Virus record (IMG/VR): IMGVR_UViG_2579778797_000017 | From: a virus | Taxonomy: Duplodnaviria > Heunggongvirae > Uroviricota > Caudoviricetes | DNA: 25,683 bases | Reading direction: 5' to 3' (one strand) | Shown: one piece after another, positions 1,531 to 17,189 of the stretch | Layout of the letters: each line of letters opens with the position of its first letter | How positions within the stretch are numbered: position 1 is the stretch's first letter | The notes under the pieces: generated by a model | Told to the model about the DNA's origin: nothing | The model's input: the letters and a program-made list of their open reading frames with translations, nothing else | The model's database searches: none | Made by a program: the position numbers and the translations under genes

Positions 1531-1569
1531 CCGCAGCACGTTCTTGCATAAGGCGTGTCTGCGGTTTTT
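1531..1569 (+). terminator. Candidate intrinsic terminator (plus strand) in the prophage-end intergenic region
   Basis: Imperfect GC-rich inverted repeat CCGCAGCACG (1531-1540) / CGTG(T)CTGCGG (1554-1564), about 10 bp with one bulge, followed by TTTTT (1565-1569). No annotated plus-strand gene ends here. Confidence 0.3.
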
Positions 1570-1888
1570 CAACTATTCAGATACATCACTCCCATCACAT
1601 TCATTCCTCCGCATCAAAGGCATATAGGCTATATCACCTTGATATTTTTATTTTTCAGATAAAAACTGTTATCTATGTATACTTTTAAACCCAATCCGTG
1701 TAGAGTCTCTGCATAAGATAGTTTGCAGTTGCCGCTTCAGCTTGCGCCATAAACCGCCTGATTTTTGCTGCCACCTGTTAGCATTCCTGTATACCTGAAA
1801 CGACAATGTTTATCTACGAACTTTAAGAACACCCAAGATAAAAATTGTCAACTATATCATATATAACACATTACTAATTCGAGGCTAT

Positions 1889-2002
1889 ATGAACAGCATA
1901 CTGATAATCACATCTCTCCTTATCATATTCAGCATTTTTAGTTATGCCCTAATAAAATTAGGGATTGGCATATCCAATAACCCAGACAAAACCGATGTAT
2001 AA
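1889..2002 (+). CDS. Hypothetical 37-aa small hydrophobic (single transmembrane helix) peptide
   Basis: ATG at 1889 preceded by GAGG (1881-1884); translation [37 protein letters not shown], stop TAA at 2000-2002. Below the 60-aa cutoff of the ORF track. Lies just upstream of ydfK. Confidence 0.3.
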
Positions 2003-3309: not shown

Positions 3310-3885
3310 CTACGGCAGTGCTGGCCATTCAATATCCTGTGCAGTTGACGTATCAACACGGTTCAGCAATACCCGATACTTTTTCCATGCTTCCAGCAAC
3401 GAGATTTCTTCCTCCGTTGCAATTTCCAGATCTGCAGCATCCTGAAGCGGCGCAATATGCTCACTGGCTACCTGCATCAGGCTGTTTTTTGTTTCTTCCG
3501 CCTCCCGGATCCGGAACAGTTTTTCTGCTTCCGTATCCTTCACCCAGGCTGTGCCGTTCCACTTCTGATATTCCCCTCCCGGCGATAACCAGGTAACATT
3601 TTCCGGTAACGGACCGAGTTCAGAAATAAATAACGCGTCGCCGGAAGCCACGTCATAAACCGTTTTACCCCGATGATCTTCAACGAGATGCCACGATGCC
3701 TCATCACTGTTGAAAACAGCCACGAAGCCTGCCGGAATATCTGGCGGTGCAATATCGATACTGTTTGCTGGCAGACCTGTATGAGGCGGAATATATGCGT
3801 CACCTTCACCAATAAATTCATTAGTTCCGGCCAGCAGATTATAAATTTTTATGGTCCGTGGTTGTTCACTCATTCTGAATGCCAT
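3310..3885 (-). CDS. tfa: Tail fibre assembly protein (lambda Tfa-like)
   Basis: 191 aa beginning [39 protein letters not shown], near-identical to the lambda Tfa N-terminus as I recall it. Its ATG at 3885 shares one nucleotide with the stf TAA stop. Confidence 0.9.
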
Positions 3886-6800
3886 TATGCAAGCCTCACA
3901 ATATAGTTAAATGCGATGTTTTTGACGGTGTTTTCCGCGTTACCAGCAGCGTTAACGGTGATGGTATGTCCATGTGAACCAATCGCAACGGAGTGCGTAT
4001 GAGCACCAATACCGACAGTATGTGCGTGTGCACCTGCGCTTGCAGCAGTACCCGATACAGAGTGCGTATGAGCGCCTGCAGAAGAAGTGTTAACACTGTA
4101 TTTAGAATAATCAGGTGATCCACTTCCCGGAGCACCACTGGAACCACCTGAAACAAATGTCATCGAATGGGTATGTGCACCGGCTGAAGCAGCCGTACCG
4201 CTAACACTATGGGTATGCGCACCAGTGTTATTCGTGGATTTAGTGCCGTAATCAAACGACGATGTGGTTTTCGTCCCCAAATCCGTACTGGATACGCTGG
4301 CGCTGTGGGTGTGTGATTTAATGCCGTCCTGTTCCTGAGACAATACGGCTCGATCACTGGCGGGCTTGCCCTTAATCGTCCAGCCACGCATATCAGGGAT
4401 CACGCCTGACGGATAAGCGGCTGCAAGTTTCGGGTAAGCAGATTTGTCAAAAGTCTGCCCCTGCATCAGGGCATAACCAGACGGAACGGTATCTGATGGC
4501 CACGGGATTGGTGCACCGACTGGATAAAACTCTGCAGGAGGATGAGCCGAGGTGTAAAGCTGCGCCCACGGCGACCAGTTTGCGTCGGTCGTATCCCGTC
4601 GTGAACGAATAAATGCCGGAGCATGAGCACCGCTTGTACCACTCCAGCCGATGAGTAACTCACCTTCGCCAACGGCTGTCATCCCTTTCAGGTGAATGAT
4701 ATTTCCATACGCTGTTGGATATCCGTTGTTATACACCTCGTATAACTCAAGACCTGTTGCCCCCTGCGTATTGTCTGTCAGCGCGGTTACCCGACCTTTT
4801 GAAGACAGATTAACTGATGATACTGCTGTTCCACCTGACGGTAACGCCCCGATCTCTGATGCCGTTGGCTTATTTCTGGAGTTATAGTCCCTTCGCCAGC
4901 CAGGTGAATAATCTGTTCCGTGATTAATATAGGTAAACTGGGCGTTAGTTGTTCCACCACCAGTGGAGGTGGTCGGTGTGGTAATGCGGATCGTCATCGC
5001 TGACTTTATCCCCATTACTTCAATGACAGCTCCGGCGAGATGAATATTACCGCAGCCAGTATCAGTAATGATTTTATTATTGCCATAAGACCAGGAACCC
5101 TTGCACATCCAGTATGGATGGTTAAATGCTCCCTGAGAATCCAGCCACTCGATAAACTGTGCAGTCGTCCAGTTTCCTGTTGTTGTGCTTACTGACCCAC
5201 CGAAGGCACGGCAGGCACCAATATTTTTCGTAAAGGTGTCTTTGCCAGGGATATCCGCACCGTTCTGATCTTTCTGCAGACGTTTCTCAGCATTGTCATT
5301 GGCTGCTTTTACTGCCTTTGGCGTTGCCGCCAGCGTTTCAGACGTGCTGTTGGTCGCGCTGCTTAGCTGGATTATCCCTTTCTGTGCTGTCGTTGCATCC
5401 TGTGCGGTGTATTTCCCGTTAGCCAGGTCATACGCGGCCTTAACGGCTTTTGGCGTTGCCGCCAGTGACTCGGAAGTGCTGTTGGTCGCACTGCTGAGCT
5501 GTACTATCCCCTTTTTCGTCGTGCTCGCATCCTCAAGCGCCACGGCGGATGCAATATCCTCTGCCCGTTTTGCCGCTGTCTCAGCGCGCGTTGCTGCAGA
5601 TTCCGCCGTACTTTTGCTCTGAGCTGCTGCCGTCGCACTGCCAGCTGCCTCTGTCGCCTTCGTGGATGCCGTCGTGGCGCTACCCTTCGCTGCTGACGCT
5701 TGTCTGGTCGCCTCATCTTTTGAAGCAGACGCCGATGATGCCGATGACGCCGCCGAACTGGCTGACGATGCGGCAGCCGTTTTTGAGGATTCTGCGCTGG
5801 TTTCCGACGCTTTCGCGTTCGTTTCGGATGTCTTCGCTGCGGAAGCTGACCTCGCTGCTGCCGTGGCCTGTTCAGTGGCTTCGCCAGCCTTCGTTGTGGC
5901 TGTTGAAGCGGATGATGCGGCGCTTTCTGCCGACTTTCCGGCAGCGGTGGCACTGGCTGAGGCCTGCCCGGCACTTGTTGACGCGGCACTGGCAGACGAC
6001 GCAGCCGCTGTTTTTGAGCCTGCCGCAGCCGAGGCGCTCTGTCCCGCTGCCGTTTCAGAAGACCTGGCGTTCGTCTCGGACGTTTTTGCCGCCTTCGCGG
6101 AATTTCCTGCCGCCGTTGCCGAGGAAGCTGCACTACTGGCGCTTGATGATGCGTTCGTTTCTGATGATTTTGCCGCCTCTTTTGAAGCCGACGCATCTCT
6201 GGCTGAGGTGGCAGCTTCTGACGCTTTCGTGGTCGCGGTGGATGCAGAAGTGGCGGCTGATTGTTGTGACGCTGAAGCATTCGTTTCTGACGTTTTCGCC
6301 GCACCGGCACTGGTGGCCGCCGCGCTTTTTGAGGACTCTGCAGCGGCAGCACTTTTTTCCGCTTCAGTGGCCTTTGTTGATGCCGTTCCTGCGCTGGAAG
6401 ACGCTGACTGAGCCGACGAAGCGGCCTGTCCGGCTGACGTGCTGGCTGCGCGTGCTGAGCCTGCAGCATCAGTCGCATGGGTTGCCGCCTCACGGGCTGA
6501 TGTGCCGGCATCGCTGGCTGACTTCTTCGCGGCTGCCGTGTTCTGTGCCACCGCGGACGCGTTACGCGCCACCTCTTCCACCATCAGTTCAAAACGGCGC
6601 AGTGCCTCCGGACGGGCATCATCCTCCGTCATGGCACCGAGAAAATCATTCAGCGTACCGGGTCGGGAATCTTCATACACGGTGATGGTCCCGGCATGTG
6701 ACGGCGGGAATCCTTCCACCAACAGAATAACGCTGTACTGACCGTACTCAACGTCCATGCTGTAACGCCCGGCTTCATCCGGATTTTCTGAGGCCAGCGT

Positions 6801-6908
6801 GTTCACCACCACCGTGGTGCTGTTACGTTTTGCTTTCAGCTGGATTGTGCAGTTCTGTACCGGTTTTCCTGTGCCGTCTTTCAGTACACCTGAAATCTTT
6901 ACTGCCAT
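3885..6908 (-). CDS. stf: Side tail fibre protein (lambda Stf-like, T4 gp37-related)
   Basis: Track ORF starts at GTG 6914; the ATG at 6908 gives [49 protein letters not shown], matching the lambda Stf N-terminus. Long Ala/Ser/Thr-rich repeat region (KTSETNA motifs), two copies of a tail-fibre repeat (GI(V/I)[11 protein letters not shown](S/T)[11 protein letters not shown]), and C-terminal His-x-His repeats (GAHTHS). Confidence 0.9.
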
Positions 6909-6919
6909 ATTCACCCCAC

Positions 6920-13428: not shown

Positions 13429-16400
13429 TACCGATATGCTCCACTTAACCGACCACCATCACGGGCCTGCTGTTGCATAAAGTCCGCTGCCGCTTTTTTC
13501 CCAAGGTCATAAACCACCTTCAGGGCAGCCGGACCTATCTGCCCGTTCGTGCCATCGTTATTGATCTCGATGTTGTACTGCGGGGCAAACATCGCCATAC
13601 CTGAACCACCAATATCCGCCACAACCCCCAGCTTACCGTCAGCACCACGACGCAGAGGCAGAATGGCTTCAGGTCCCGCTTCACCCATCACACCCGCGCC
13701 TTTTGCAAAAGCAAAAAACGTCGGACGGTTAACCACCGTGCCACTGTAACGACTCAAATCAGCAGACTGATAAATCCCCCCATTGGCATTCAGGGAAAGG
13801 CTGCTGAGATCAAATCCCAGTACACTGCCAATCCCTTTTATCGATTTCATCATGGTTGCCTGCGCCAGGATTTTCGCCATATCTGACAGCACAGAAGAGG
13901 TGAAGGATTTGAAATTGAGTTTGCCGGTAGTGACAAAAGTTGCCAGGCCATTTCCCATGTTGCTGAAGGCTGACGAGAACCCCTGTTCTGCTGTTCCTGC
14001 CGTATTATCTGCATCCACGGTAAAATCCTGAAATGCACGCAGGACTCCGTTTTTCCAGTTACCCTGCACAACTTCAAGCTGTTGCCAGTAACGGCGATTC
14101 TCATTCAGTTGTCGGTTCAGGCTCTCCGTCAGCGCCTGCTCGGCCTTTCTGTAGTCATCCGTGTTATATGTCCCTTTCTGCTCACTATCCCGCCTCAACT
14201 GCTCCAGCTGTTGCTGGTATTTCTGGCGAAGACTCAGTTGTACCTGATATCGCTGCCGCTGCTGATCACCCATACCCACCGTGGCGATATCCAGGTCATG
14301 TTGCTGACGCTGAGCGCGCTCTTCTTCAGCCAGTTGACTGGTCAGCTGAATTGTTTTTTTCTTCAGATCGTTGAGTGCCGTCTGTTTCTGAAGCTCCTGC
14401 TGTTTTACATCCAGCAGCGTCAGTGCCTGAATCAGTTCATCTTTACGGGCCAGCACACTCTTTTCATCTGCCGTCAGTTTTTTCCCGTCCAGATCGCTGA
14501 TGCGCTGCTGCAGAGCCAGAAGCTGTTTATGCGCTTCTGTCATCTTTTCAGTGGCAATGCCTGCTGACTGTCTTGCAGCAGCAATCTGTCCTTCCACCTG
14601 TGCCTGTTGCTGACTGTACTGCAGCAATAACCGGGTGGCCTCATCATTACGGGTTTCGCGTGTTTTTTTCTTACCGGATGCCAGGGCTTTCTCGTAACGT
14701 TCATTTTCACGTTGTATCGCTGCATCCCTGACAGCCTGATCGGCGTACTGCATGGAATTAATACGCGCAATTTCACGCTGATGTCGTGCTGCTTCCGTTT
14801 CATTCATCCGGTTCAGTGCAGCATTTTCAGCATTACGTCGTTTCTGTTGCTCCTGATAATTCCGCTCTGCCTGCTCTTTTGCATCCTGCAAATCCTTCTG
14901 GCGTTTTTTCTCCTGAAGATCGTTAAGACGCTGCTGATCGTATTCAACCTGAGAAGATGATGCCGTCCAGGGGAGTCTTTTCGCCCGCGACACTTTCTCC
15001 TGTAAAGCGGCAATCTGTTCATCCAGCGAGTCTTCACGACCAATATTCATGGCCGCATCCCAGAAACGACTCCACAAATCAGACAGATACTTCAGCGTAC
15101 TGCCAAGCGCATTGAGGTTATTATCAATATCCGCAGTACGCCGACCGGTTTCCTCTGCCAGTGCAGACATGGCTATCCGTGCAGCATCACTGGACCGTCC
15201 CTGATCCCCAAGGACACGTATCTGCTCAAGCTGAGTGGCAGTAAGAAAATGCAGCTCATTGTCCAGAGCCTTCGCGGCATTTACAGGATCATCCTTCAGC
15301 CGCTTAAACTGATTTATGGTATCGCTGACCGACTGGCCAACCGATCGCTCCATCTGTGCGGCAGCTCTCGCCACCATACCGATATCGTTTCCACGAAATG
15401 CACCACTCCCCACCACCTGAGCCAGCGCACCGGCTGCAGCATGTTGCGTGATACCATTCCCGGAAATAGCACGACTGAGCGTCCACAGCTGCCCGGCAGT
15501 GACTCCGGCATAATGCCCCGTCAGCGACAACTGGCGGTTAAATTCTTCCCCCTCCTTCTGACCGTCATACCAGGCTTTACCCAGACCATAGACGGACGCG
15601 GCAATACCGCCAATAACCCCGCCAAGCATCATGCCTTTCGGTGACATCAGAGTGTCTATCCATCCGGCACGGTTAGCCAGCGTTATCCCGGATCCCCTCA
15701 GCGCCCCTAAATTGCCGCGGGCCAGTTCACCTATCAGAACGCCTATCTCCTGGCGGGCCGCTGCACTTTTCAGACCCAGCGAATGCGTGGCTTTTCCTGC
15801 CTGCTCCATTTTGCGGATATACACTTCTGCAGCACTGCTTACCCCCAGCTGGGCAGCCTTAGCACGAAGCAACTCAGAAGAAGAAAGATTCTGGCGGGTT
15901 GCCTGCTCTTTAAGCTGACGGATAAACGCCACTTTCTGTCGGGTAGCCTCTTCCTCAGCCTGCGTAAGAACACGGGTTTTCGCCGTAACCTCAGAAATCA
16001 GCGCCAGATAATCCTGCTGACCAATCCCGCCACTGTTTCTGGCCTGTCGGATCTGCTGCTGAATACGCTGTAATTCCTGCAGCCCCGCACTGGCCTGTTT
16101 CACACTGTCAATCTGACGATAAAACGCGGCAGCCGCTTTATCCTGAGCCTCCGCCAGAGCCATGGCCTGCGCCTGTTCCTCGCGCATTTTCTGGCTCAGT
16201 GCCTCCATACGCTGGCGGGTTTGCTCCACCTCGCGGGCCATGCGTTCATGAGCCTGTGCGCTCTTCTCCACCGTCTGCGCATGGACGGATGCGGCTGTTG
16301 CAGCCGAAGAAGCCGCCTGCATTGTCTGCCGGGCGGCCTGAGTCTGACGCTCCATAAAACGCTGCATACGGGCAGAAGACCGTTCTGCATCGCTGGCTGC

Positions 16401-16493
16401 ACCATTCAGAAGGTTTTTGATACGGGGAATTTCATTTTTAAACTCTGCCGCATCAATCCCCAAATCAATGACCAGGTTGGCTATCTGGTCCAT
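13428..16493 (-). CDS. H: Tail tape measure protein H
   Basis: Track ORF starts at TTG 16523; the ATG at 16493 is preceded by GGAGGTG and gives MDQIANLVIDLGIDAAEF. 1021 aa, long coiled-coil-like Q/E/R/K-rich centre; C-terminus (...NNDGTNGQIGPAALKVVYD...DGGRLSGAYR) resembles lambda gpH. Confidence 0.9.
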   Translation of the reverse strand: MDQIANLVIDLGIDAAEFKNEIPRIKNLLNGAASDAERSSARMQRFMERQTQAARQTMQAASSAATAASVHAQTVEKSAQAHERMAREVEQTRQRMEALSQKMREEQAQAMALAEAQDKAAAAFYRQIDSVKQASAGLQELQRIQQQIRQARNSGGIGQQDYLALISEVTAKTRVLTQAEEEATRQKVAFIRQLKEQATRQNLSSSELLRAKAAQLGVSSAAEVYIRKMEQAGKATHSLGLKSAAARQEIGVLIGELARGNLGALRGSGITLANRAGWIDTLMSPKGMMLGGVIGGIAASVYGLGKAWYDGQKEGEEFNRQLSLTGHYAGVTAGQLWTLSRAISGNGITQHAAAGALAQVVGSGAFRGNDIGMVARAAAQMERSVGQSVSDTINQFKRLKDDPVNAAKALDNELHFLTATQLEQIRVLGDQGRSSDAARIAMSALAEETGRRTADIDNNLNALGSTLKYLSDLWSRFWDAAMNIGREDSLDEQIAALQEKVSRAKRLPWTASSSQVEYDQQRLNDLQEKKRQKDLQDAKEQAERNYQEQQKRRNAENAALNRMNETEAARHQREIARINSMQYADQAVRDAAIQRENERYEKALASGKKKTRETRNDEATRLLLQYSQQQAQVEGQIAAARQSAGIATEKMTEAHKQLLALQQRISDLDGKKLTADEKSVLARKDELIQALTLLDVKQQELQKQTALNDLKKKTIQLTSQLAEEERAQRQQHDLDIATVGMGDQQRQRYQVQLSLRQKYQQQLEQLRRDSEQKGTYNTDDYRKAEQALTESLNRQLNENRRYWQQLEVVQGNWKNGVLRAFQDFTVDADNTAGTAEQGFSSAFSNMGNGLATFVTTGKLNFKSFTSSVLSDMAKILAQATMMKSIKGIGSVLGFDLSSLSLNANGGIYQSADLSRYSGTVVNRPTFFAFAKGAGVMGEAGPEAILPLRRGADGKLGVVADIGGSGMAMFAPQYNIEINNDGTNGQIGPAALKVVYDLGKKAAADFMQQQARDGGRLSGAYR

Positions 16494-17189
16494 AACGCAC
16501 ACCTCCGGAAATACCTTCCCCAAGATGCATCAGTTCTTCGTCCGTTCGCTCCGGTATCCCGTTCTCTTCCGGTAAAAGGCTGAAATCAGCCACCGCAGCA
16601 TCACTGCTACCGGACACCATTCTCACGATCAATGCCTTCAGCGAGGCAAACTGCGCATCCATCCACACATCACTGAAGCTCTGCATCCGGAAATAATCGC
16701 CCCACTCACCAAGCTCAGTGGCCGACATTTCCGACAGCATCCGCCGCCAGTCTGCCCGCCGGAACTCCCGGGCAAGCCGCATGACAAACTGCATTTCCCG
16801 CGTCAGGACTTTTCCGGCGTCAGCACCTCATGCTCCAAATCCCCGGCATTCTCAATGACTCCCATACCGCTCAGCGACAGAACCATCTCCGCCCCCGCTC
16901 CCAGGGCATCATACGACCATGTTGTAATAACGGATGCGCAAAGCGTCTCAACATCCTGAGACTGTTCCGCATTCCACAGTGAGCGGGAAACCAGCCAGGC
17001 ATTGATATCCATCCCCATCCGCAGAAAAGCAATCTGTCGTTCAGCCTCCGGCAGTTCTCCCTCTTCGGCATCAAACTTTGCCGTTCGCTGCTGAACAAAC
17101 GCCAGATATTCAATTCTCTGCAGCCCGGACAGCTCACTGAGCACCACGGACTGCTTTTCATAATTAAACGTGCCCTGTTTCAGAAACAT
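16465..17189 (-). CDS. GT: Tail assembly chaperone G-T fusion, made by programmed -1 ribosomal frameshift near the end of G
   Basis: The T frame (track ORF 16465..16794) is open upstream to a TGA at 16828-16830 and overlaps the last 22 nt of G in the -1 frame. The only possible shift window contains GGAAAAG (complement of 16809-16815). Same arrangement as lambda G/G-T. Confidence 0.7.
16803..17189 (-). CDS. G: Tail assembly chaperone G
   Basis: Track ORF begins at TTG 17231; tandem ATGs at 17192 and 17189 follow GGAG (complement of 17196-17199) and give M(M)FLKQGTFNYEKQ. The C-terminal part (...EMVLSLSGMGVIE...) matches lambda gpG as recalled. Ends ...LTPEKS, TGA at 16803-16805. Confidence 0.85.
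   Translation of the reverse strand: MFLKQGTFNYEKQSVVLSELSGLQRIEYLAFVQQRTAKFDAEEGELPEAERQIAFLRMGMDINAWLVSRSLWNAEQSQDVETLCASVITTWSYDALGAGAEMVLSLSGMGVIENAGDLEHEVLTPEKS
16809..16815 (-). other. Candidate -1 frameshift slippery heptamer G GAA AAG
   Basis: Minus-strand sequence ...CCG GAA AAG TCC TGA in the G frame; after a -1 slip reads GGA AAA GTC CTG... in the T frame. One base different from the lambda heptamer G GGA AAG as I recall it. Confidence 0.55.

Follow-up and report, generated by a model that had tools for sequence, protein, structure and literature searches.

Does the short reading frame that begins with the ATG at position 1889, close to one end of a lambdoid prophage and immediately upstream of the cold-shock gene ydfK, encode a real protein, and if so, what might that protein do for the prophage or its host? 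All coordinates given here are positions in the window, by which we mean the whole 25,683-nt stretch of DNA that was analysed. This stretch covers one end of a complete lambdoid prophage that sits within ydfJ. On its - strand, the late operon runs from terminase to the tail genes, J and lom and then to stf and tfa; ynfT, ydfK and pinQ lie on the + strand and are read from the attR end, with ynfT about 600 nt inside attR. An earlier note, made from the letters alone, had placed the frame in the accessory region of a prophage, close to the attachment site and upstream of ydfK and pinQ, and this location is borne out. Within the late operon, the side tail-fibre gene (3885-6914, -) is intact and encodes about 1,009 aa, with a very long Ala/Ser/Thr-rich repeat region. 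The features on which the following argument depends are these:

1529-1570, + strand: intrinsic terminator (hairpin and U-run), -20.7 kcal/mol, z = -4.45, more stable than any of 200 shuffles, with UUUUU after the hairpin
1571-1880, + strand: upstream non-coding region, the predicted promoter and 5' UTR of ynfT; its fold is not unusual (z = -0.56)
1881-1884, + strand: Shine-Dalgarno sequence GAGG, 4 nt before the ATG of ynfT
1889-2002, + strand: ynfT coding sequence, 37 aa, YnaM/YnfT family, Y19 allele, WP_122985608.1
2003-2070, + strand: ynfT-ydfK spacer, 68 nt, with the ydfK Shine-Dalgarno sequence AAGGAA at 2058-2063
2071-2304, + strand: ydfK, 77 aa, cold-shock-induced, Pfam PF27475

The frame itself is unambiguous. 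Both the list of ORFs and the sequence give 37 codons on the + strand from the ATG at 1889 to a stop ending at 2002, and the earlier description of a GAGG Shine-Dalgarno sequence, 37 amino acids and one hydrophobic helix followed by a polar tail corresponds exactly to what is there. The most hydrophobic 19-residue window of the peptide (residues 4-22) reaches 2.62 on the Kyte-Doolittle scale, a level that, in the six frames of the whole window, just 2 of all 92 ATG ORFs between 30 and 60 aa long attain. AlphaFold2 predicts a single helix over residues 2-30 with a less ordered tail (mean pLDDT 88). A second hydrophobic ORF of this kind, 59 aa from an ATG at 14781-14960 (+) with a Kyte-Doolittle value of 3.09, lies antisense to the tape-measure gene (13429-16494, -) and is probably spurious.

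Who, then, is this peptide? The ORF is an already known, named and annotated E. coli prophage gene, ynfT. The peptide passes the curated cutoffs of both family models over their full length: it scores 62.2 bits against a cutoff of 35 with NCBIfam NF041477 (profile positions 1-34 of 34) and 92.6 bits against a cutoff of 27 with Pfam PF23676, YnaM-like (positions 1-37 of 37). It also matches PHROG 35882, which is labelled 'unknown function'. In strain CV839-06, whose equivalent stretch is 100 % identical over the ynfT region and has coinciding gene coordinates across 25.7 kb, RefSeq/PGAP places ynfT (WP_122985608.1) at exactly 1889-2002. The ORF had been noted earlier as unannotated and had not been recognised as a named gene; neither point holds, as the NCBIfam and Pfam models exist, RefSeq/PGAP calls the gene at precisely these positions, and its K-12 counterpart carries the name ynfT and the number b4748. 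Its position, too, fits the family, with ydfK/ynaE and pin downstream of it and the att end of a Qin/Rac-type lambdoid prophage close by. We therefore hold with high confidence that the ORF at 1889-2002 (+) is ynfT, encoding a 37-residue, predicted single-pass membrane protein, and that it is the first gene of a ynfT-ydfK cassette.

The gene is widespread in one species. When positions 1600-2400 were compared by megablast with 5,426 complete E. coli genomes, the region was found in 2,809; the ynfT ORF itself is present in 2,804 of the 5,426, in one to three copies each; all of the matches listed were annotated as 'ynfT: YnaM/YnfT family protein' and 'ydfK: cold shock protein YdfK'. The annotation of K-12 MG1655 contains two copies, b4748 (ynfT, in the Qin prophage) and b4744 (ynaM, in the Rac prophage), which are identical paralogues. 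The K-12 protein has the same length as that of the window and shares 36 of its 37 residues and the GAGG-N4-ATG start, and its genes are likewise placed upstream of ydfK/ynaE and pinQ/pinR. The one difference is at residue 19, which is tyrosine in the window and in the orthologue from a Salmonella phage but histidine in K-12. The prophages also differ, since that of the window has a complete structural module whereas Qin of K-12 is annotated as cryptic. Readers of the literature should be aware of a trap in naming: the table in PMC6001520 lists the ORF between ydfJ and ydfK (1632890-1633003) under the provisional name 'ynfQ', and this is ynfT in current RefSeq.

In AT-rich DNA with as many short ORFs as this region has, a fortuitous frame might be suspected. 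This suspicion is refuted by conservation and selection, by the annotation and by the tagging data described below, which leave a chance ORF in AT-rich intergenic DNA with a vanishingly small probability. We compared 93 related loci drawn from species-representative genomes, IMG/VR viral contigs and phage records. The 37-codon frame is intact in every one of them, the 12 DNA alleles encode no more than 4 protein variants, and GAGG-N4-ATG is invariant throughout, including in the Salmonella phage, although the neighbouring bases differ there. The most distant orthologue, gp034 of Salmonella phage 118970_sal3, shows 81 % amino-acid identity; the two genes are separated by 15 synonymous and 7 non-synonymous differences (binomial P = 5e-6), corresponding to dS 1.27, dN 0.086 and dN/dS 0.07. 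The dN/dS of ydfK is 0.08, which is the same constraint as that on ynfT, and across all comparisons with synonymous change the ynfT ratio lies between 0.06 and 0.28. Among E. coli alleles of ynfT, 9 of the 11 polymorphic sites are synonymous (P = 5e-5). DNA identity between E. coli and the Salmonella phage follows the genes: it is 82-83 % in the ynfT and ydfK ORFs, 66 % in the spacer, 55 % in the nearest 53 nt upstream and 47 % further upstream.

Constraint is also unevenly distributed along the peptide. In all, the versions from E. coli and from the Salmonella phage agree at 28 of 37 positions, with invariant stretches at the C-terminal G25-D36 (12 residues) and in the core (S9-F17), and position 19 toggles between H and Y. 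The YnfT peptide is thus under strong purifying selection at the amino-acid level. The earlier note had proposed conservation of the frame and Ka/Ks as a check, and had named tolerated frameshifts or stops in homologous regions as what would speak against the ORF; no such disruption occurs in any of the 93 loci. Its reading of the ORF as a small membrane protein is upheld as well, with conservation, dN/dS and the AlphaFold2 model all indicating a real coding gene for a single-pass hydrophobic peptide.

The family is tiny. An exhaustive HMMER search of 1.84 billion cluster representatives returned 4 clusters, all at least 81 % identical to the YnfT query, and since there are no distant relatives, homology offers no clue to function. 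Among species-representative genomes, ynfT was found only in Escherichia and Shigella and on three metagenome-assembled contigs labelled as unrelated taxa; the ORF on these contigs is identical to the common E. coli allele, and they are probably mis-binned. The gene was seen exclusively on phage or prophage DNA, namely in Escherichia and Shigella prophages and in one Salmonella phage. Note that the phage collection was compared by a DNA search, as tblastn could align no more than residues 23-37, the low-complexity filter having probably masked the hydrophobic part.

Is the protein made? For the K-12 alleles, the literature shows that it is, in normal culture. VanOrsdel et al. 2018 (PMC6001520) SPA-tagged the two K-12 genes on the chromosome and could detect each of the proteins, so that the tagging experiment proposed in the earlier note had already been performed in 2018, on alleles with 36 of 37 identical residues. 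The same study notes that both copies had come up as positives in a tetracycline ribosome-profiling screen, and the expression it describes took place in uninduced cells whose prophages are defective. For the allele of the window, the dN/dS of 0.07 given above lends indirect support to translation. Weaver et al. (bioRxiv 10.1101/511675) reported that YnaM-SPA exceeds most newly found small proteins in abundance in ordinary LB, and that YnaM showed no start-codon peak with Onc112 or retapamulin. Ribosome profiling, which the earlier note had also suggested, had already been applied to the K-12 copies as well. We infer that the absent peak is probably a mapping artefact of the 2019 initiation-profiling study, which mapped unique reads only, because ynaM and ynfT are near-identical duplicates in K-12. 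In addition, one RNA-seq study (PMC13058169) saw ynfT increase along with deaD and rhlE.

If the protein is real and is produced, the question becomes what it does. Our search of the literature found no paper that gives YnfT or YnaM a function, and ynfT is listed among the uncharacterised Qin genes in PMC11551758. It would be tempting to assign it to the type I toxins, hydrophobic peptides that depolarise the membrane and are normally silenced by an antisense RNA, and the earlier note had pointed to this resemblance. The size of YnfT, its one hydrophobic helix and its short charged tail do resemble toxins of the Ldr/Fst type, there is a very weak match to PepG1 (E = 0.028), and a single promoter-like site on the minus strand (2080-2053) points into ynfT. 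However, the PepG1 match reaches 14 bits where the cutoff is 70, no toxin family in Pfam or NCBIfam was matched, and the HMMER search of cluster representatives recovered near-identical YnfT proteins only. Promoter-like sites are no commoner than in shuffled sequence, and the minus strand carries no terminator-like site. No Rfam family was matched, neither strand folds unusually well (z = +0.41 for the antisense strand), and no ncRNA is annotated in K-12 at either the ynfT or the ynaM locus. The antisense RNA that the earlier note had proposed to look for thus left no trace in Rfam matches, minus-strand terminator-like sites or unusual folding, in a computation that an unstructured transcript could escape. 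Furthermore, type I toxins are tightly repressed, whereas the protein tagged on the chromosome builds up in LB; one to three intact copies of the gene persist in more than half of E. coli genomes; and its constant neighbour is the protein-coding ydfK rather than an antitoxin RNA gene. We found no report in the literature that tested the toxicity of YnfT. With no toxin family, antisense signal or unusual fold, and with the protein accumulating in normal growth, the toxin reading appears highly improbable.

The DNA around the gene gives a second line of evidence. The terminator at 1529-1570 lies about 320 nt upstream of ynfT and isolates the cassette from upstream transcription on the + strand, so that ynfT needs a promoter of its own within 1571-1880. 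Positions 1445-1570 match a stretch that, in phages 2H10 and mEp460 and in many Stx phages, comes immediately after dinI; no dinI is annotated in the window, and this segment looks like a deletion remnant of an upstream dinI-type gene. A full-length Rfam match to CssrB, a Shigella chromosomal sRNA, spans 1532-1669 (-) with 24.4 bits against a gathering threshold of 76 (E = 0.019); below threshold and overlapping the terminator remnant, it is probably due to chance. The sole sigma-70-like candidate for the ynfT promoter, TTCAGA-N18-TATACT at 1654-1683, is also conserved in phage 2H10. The promoter scan gave 7 sites against 5.1 +/- 2.0 expected from shuffled sequence, which is not significant by itself, and the site at 1654-1683 therefore stays a candidate only. 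Of two other sites considered, TTCCCA-16-GATAAT, which PMC3946193 gives as a ydfK promoter, was rejected for ynfT because it falls within ydfJ (window position 882); for TTGTCA at 1845-1850, picked by eye as a possible -35 element in the 53 nt that can be aligned with the Salmonella phage, no -10 element was seen at a workable spacing. The interval 1571-1880 also contains a 33-aa TTG ORF (1765-1866, +) that is called as a gene in phage HannyBb. The differences between this ORF and its 2H10 counterpart are mostly non-synonymous, and the segment is probably non-coding, serving as 5' UTR or promoter DNA of ynfT.

Downstream, the arrangement is more rigid. In all 93 loci ydfK directly follows ynfT, and the spacer between them measures 68 nt in 92 of these and 74 nt in the Salmonella phage. 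No terminator-like site was found in the spacer (2003-2070), and its fold is unremarkable (z = +0.79). A perfect 7-bp hairpin inside ynfT (1949-1965) was considered as a terminator and discarded, as it lacks a U-run and is not conserved in the Salmonella phage. To judge from the fixed spacer and the absent terminator, ynfT and ydfK are likely to be co-transcribed. The two genes form an accessory cassette, with the tail-fibre/pin genes on one side of it and the attachment site on the other, that is transcribed in the direction opposite to the late operon of the phage.

This arrangement suggests another explanation, in which ynfT acts in cis as an upstream ORF, its translation mainly controlling the transcription or translation of ydfK. 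The frame lies on the same strand as ydfK, 68 nt upstream and at a fixed spacing, and short 5'-leader transcripts of ydfK and ynaE copurify with Hfq according to PMC5089854 and PMC4152368, which cite Raghavan 2011 and present them as prematurely terminated, riboswitch-like RNAs; on the cis-acting account, they would be the attenuated product. However, a leader peptide is expected to vary largely freely in sequence except at a few regulatory codons, and most positions of YnfT are invariant. The low dN/dS extends over the whole peptide, including its 12 invariant C-terminal residues, which implies that the peptide sequence itself, and not merely its translation, is selected. Moreover, the tagged protein is stable and fairly abundant, and neither a terminator nor alternative hairpins are seen between ynfT and ydfK. 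A mainly cis-acting role thus seems to us a long shot. The Hfq-bound leader RNAs are probably the ynfT and ynaM mRNAs themselves, although the overlap is one that we infer.

What is known of YdfK bears on the role of its partner. AlphaFold2 models YdfK as three helices (pLDDT 81). The best, and the one convincing, PDB match to this model is YmgB/AriR (2OXL), with a Foldseek probability of 1.00, TM-scores of 0.66/0.81 and an rmsd of 2.0 A over 59 columns. Weak but concordant profile alignments place the 'LGxAVxEvxKxGRxIN' stretch of YdfK against YcgZ, AriR and YmgA (NCBIfam E = 0.012; hhalign E = 0.0014-0.027). In the K-12 annotation, YcgZ, AriR and YmgA are putative two-component connector proteins whose genes adjoin the 'blue light- and temperature-regulated' bluF. 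Taken together, the modelled fold and the weak sequence matches suggest that YdfK may belong, as a distant relative, to the connector group of YcgZ, YmgA and AriR. As for regulation, ydfK and ynaE belong to a cold-shock transcript group (PMC7430671) and have been described as Fur-activated, with a 17-bit cluster of Fur boxes centred at +8 from the start codon (PMC2189734). The minus-strand promoter-like site mentioned above, TTGATT-N16-TAAAAT at 2080-2053, lies in AT-rich DNA over the ribosome-binding and start region of ydfK and coincides with the Fur-box cluster reported in PMC2189734.

YdfK also occurs on its own. Distant homologues (PF27475, 55-64 % identity) are found in Enterobacter, Erwinia, Limnobaculum and some E. 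coli, outside prophage tail modules; these loci often lie beside a 2,860-aa GH94 gene and a divergent ynfU-like (PF23499) gene for a small zinc protein, with a GnsAB-family gene nearby. No hydrophobic small ORF was found upstream of ydfK in these Enterobacter, E. coli, Erwinia and Limnobaculum loci, apart from one TTG ORF 400 nt away at a single locus. It follows that YdfK does not require YnfT, and that ynfT is an addition specific to the phage-borne lineage.

Within that lineage the cassette is probably mobile. In the isolated temperate phages mEp460_ev081, HannyBb, Tritos, Turner, Kati, 2H10 and the PhiR series, the module is flanked by the tail-fibre genes on one side and int/att on the other, a classical site for accessory genes; Salmonella phage 118970_sal3 has it there too, without pin. 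The whole ynfT-ydfK-pin stretch is present at 99.6 % identity in mEp460_ev081 (LR597641.1); in the parental mEp460 (NC_019716.1) only the 126 nt flanking dinI were matched. This suggests that the stf/tfa/pin block takes the cassette along during recombination between phages and Rac/Qin-type prophages.

Accessory genes beside tail-fibre genes can exclude other phages, as Cor of phi80 and N15 and gp15 of HK97 do, and YnfT, alone or with YdfK, might similarly be a protective factor that blocks DNA entry or excludes superinfecting phages. In support of this idea, the cassette occupies such an accessory (moron) position by stf/tfa/pin and near att in several temperate phages, it is found only on phage or prophage DNA, and defective prophages express it without induction (PMC6001520). 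However, no PADLOC defence model was matched and no similarity to known exclusion proteins was seen, YdfK homologues also occur in non-phage chromosomal contexts, and the reported regulation is by cold shock and Fur rather than by phage infection. We consider a role in exclusion unlikely, though worth bearing in mind.

Instead, we tentatively propose, at somewhat less than even chances and granting that the gene is real, that YnfT inserts in the inner membrane and modulates a larger membrane protein, and that it is co-produced with YdfK. YnfT would enter the inner membrane as a single helix, with a predicted N-out/C-in topology because both lysines (K23 and K34) are on the C-terminal side. This helix would pack against a larger membrane protein and thereby modulate it, the likely determinants being the invariant small-xxx-small face G25xxxS29 and the NNPDKTD tail. 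Its production would go together, under control of the cold-shock type, with that of YdfK, the cold-shock-induced soluble protein that resembles AriR and YcgZ. The modulator mechanism is suggested by analogy with other small membrane proteins. YcgZ, YmgA and AriR act on the Rcs system, and we might speculate further that YnfT is the membrane anchor or receptor for YdfK, that the pair is a prophage-borne, cold-induced module tuning a host envelope sensor kinase (e.g. Rcs) in lysogens, and that the so-called 5' leader RNA is the ynfT/ynaM mRNA. This fuller scheme has only a slim chance of being correct in all its parts.

How much does the finding matter? Since ynfT is already present in RefSeq, Pfam and NCBIfam, the correct recognition by eye of a real small gene adds nothing new, and the evidence points to nothing beyond the known class of small membrane proteins. 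Yet roughly one in two complete E. coli genomes carries ynfT/ynaM, purifying selection on the gene is strong, and its function, once known, would explain why lambdoid prophages keep the ynfT-ydfK cassette.

Three groups of known systems can be set beside YnfT. The type I toxins Ldr, Fst/PepG1, Hok, TisB and Ibs are often carried on mobile elements and share with it a short hydrophobic helix and a polar tail; YnfT differs from them in matching none of their families, in showing no evidence of an antisense RNA, in being expressed during normal growth and in having a protein-coding partner. With the phage genes lom, bor, cor and HK97 gp15, ynfT shares a place between the tail-fibre genes and att, a transcription unit of its own opposing the late operon, and expression from the prophage, but no homology. 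AcrZ, MgrB, MgtS and KdpF are bacterial small inner-membrane regulators. YnfT has no sequence relationship to them and, unlike them, is phage-borne; however, like them it has fewer than 50 aa, has one transmembrane helix (predicted in YnfT), is detectable only by tagging and is encoded beside or with a functionally related gene, a relation that in the case of YnfT is putative. By this analogy, YnfT most plausibly works in the manner of the small inner-membrane regulators.
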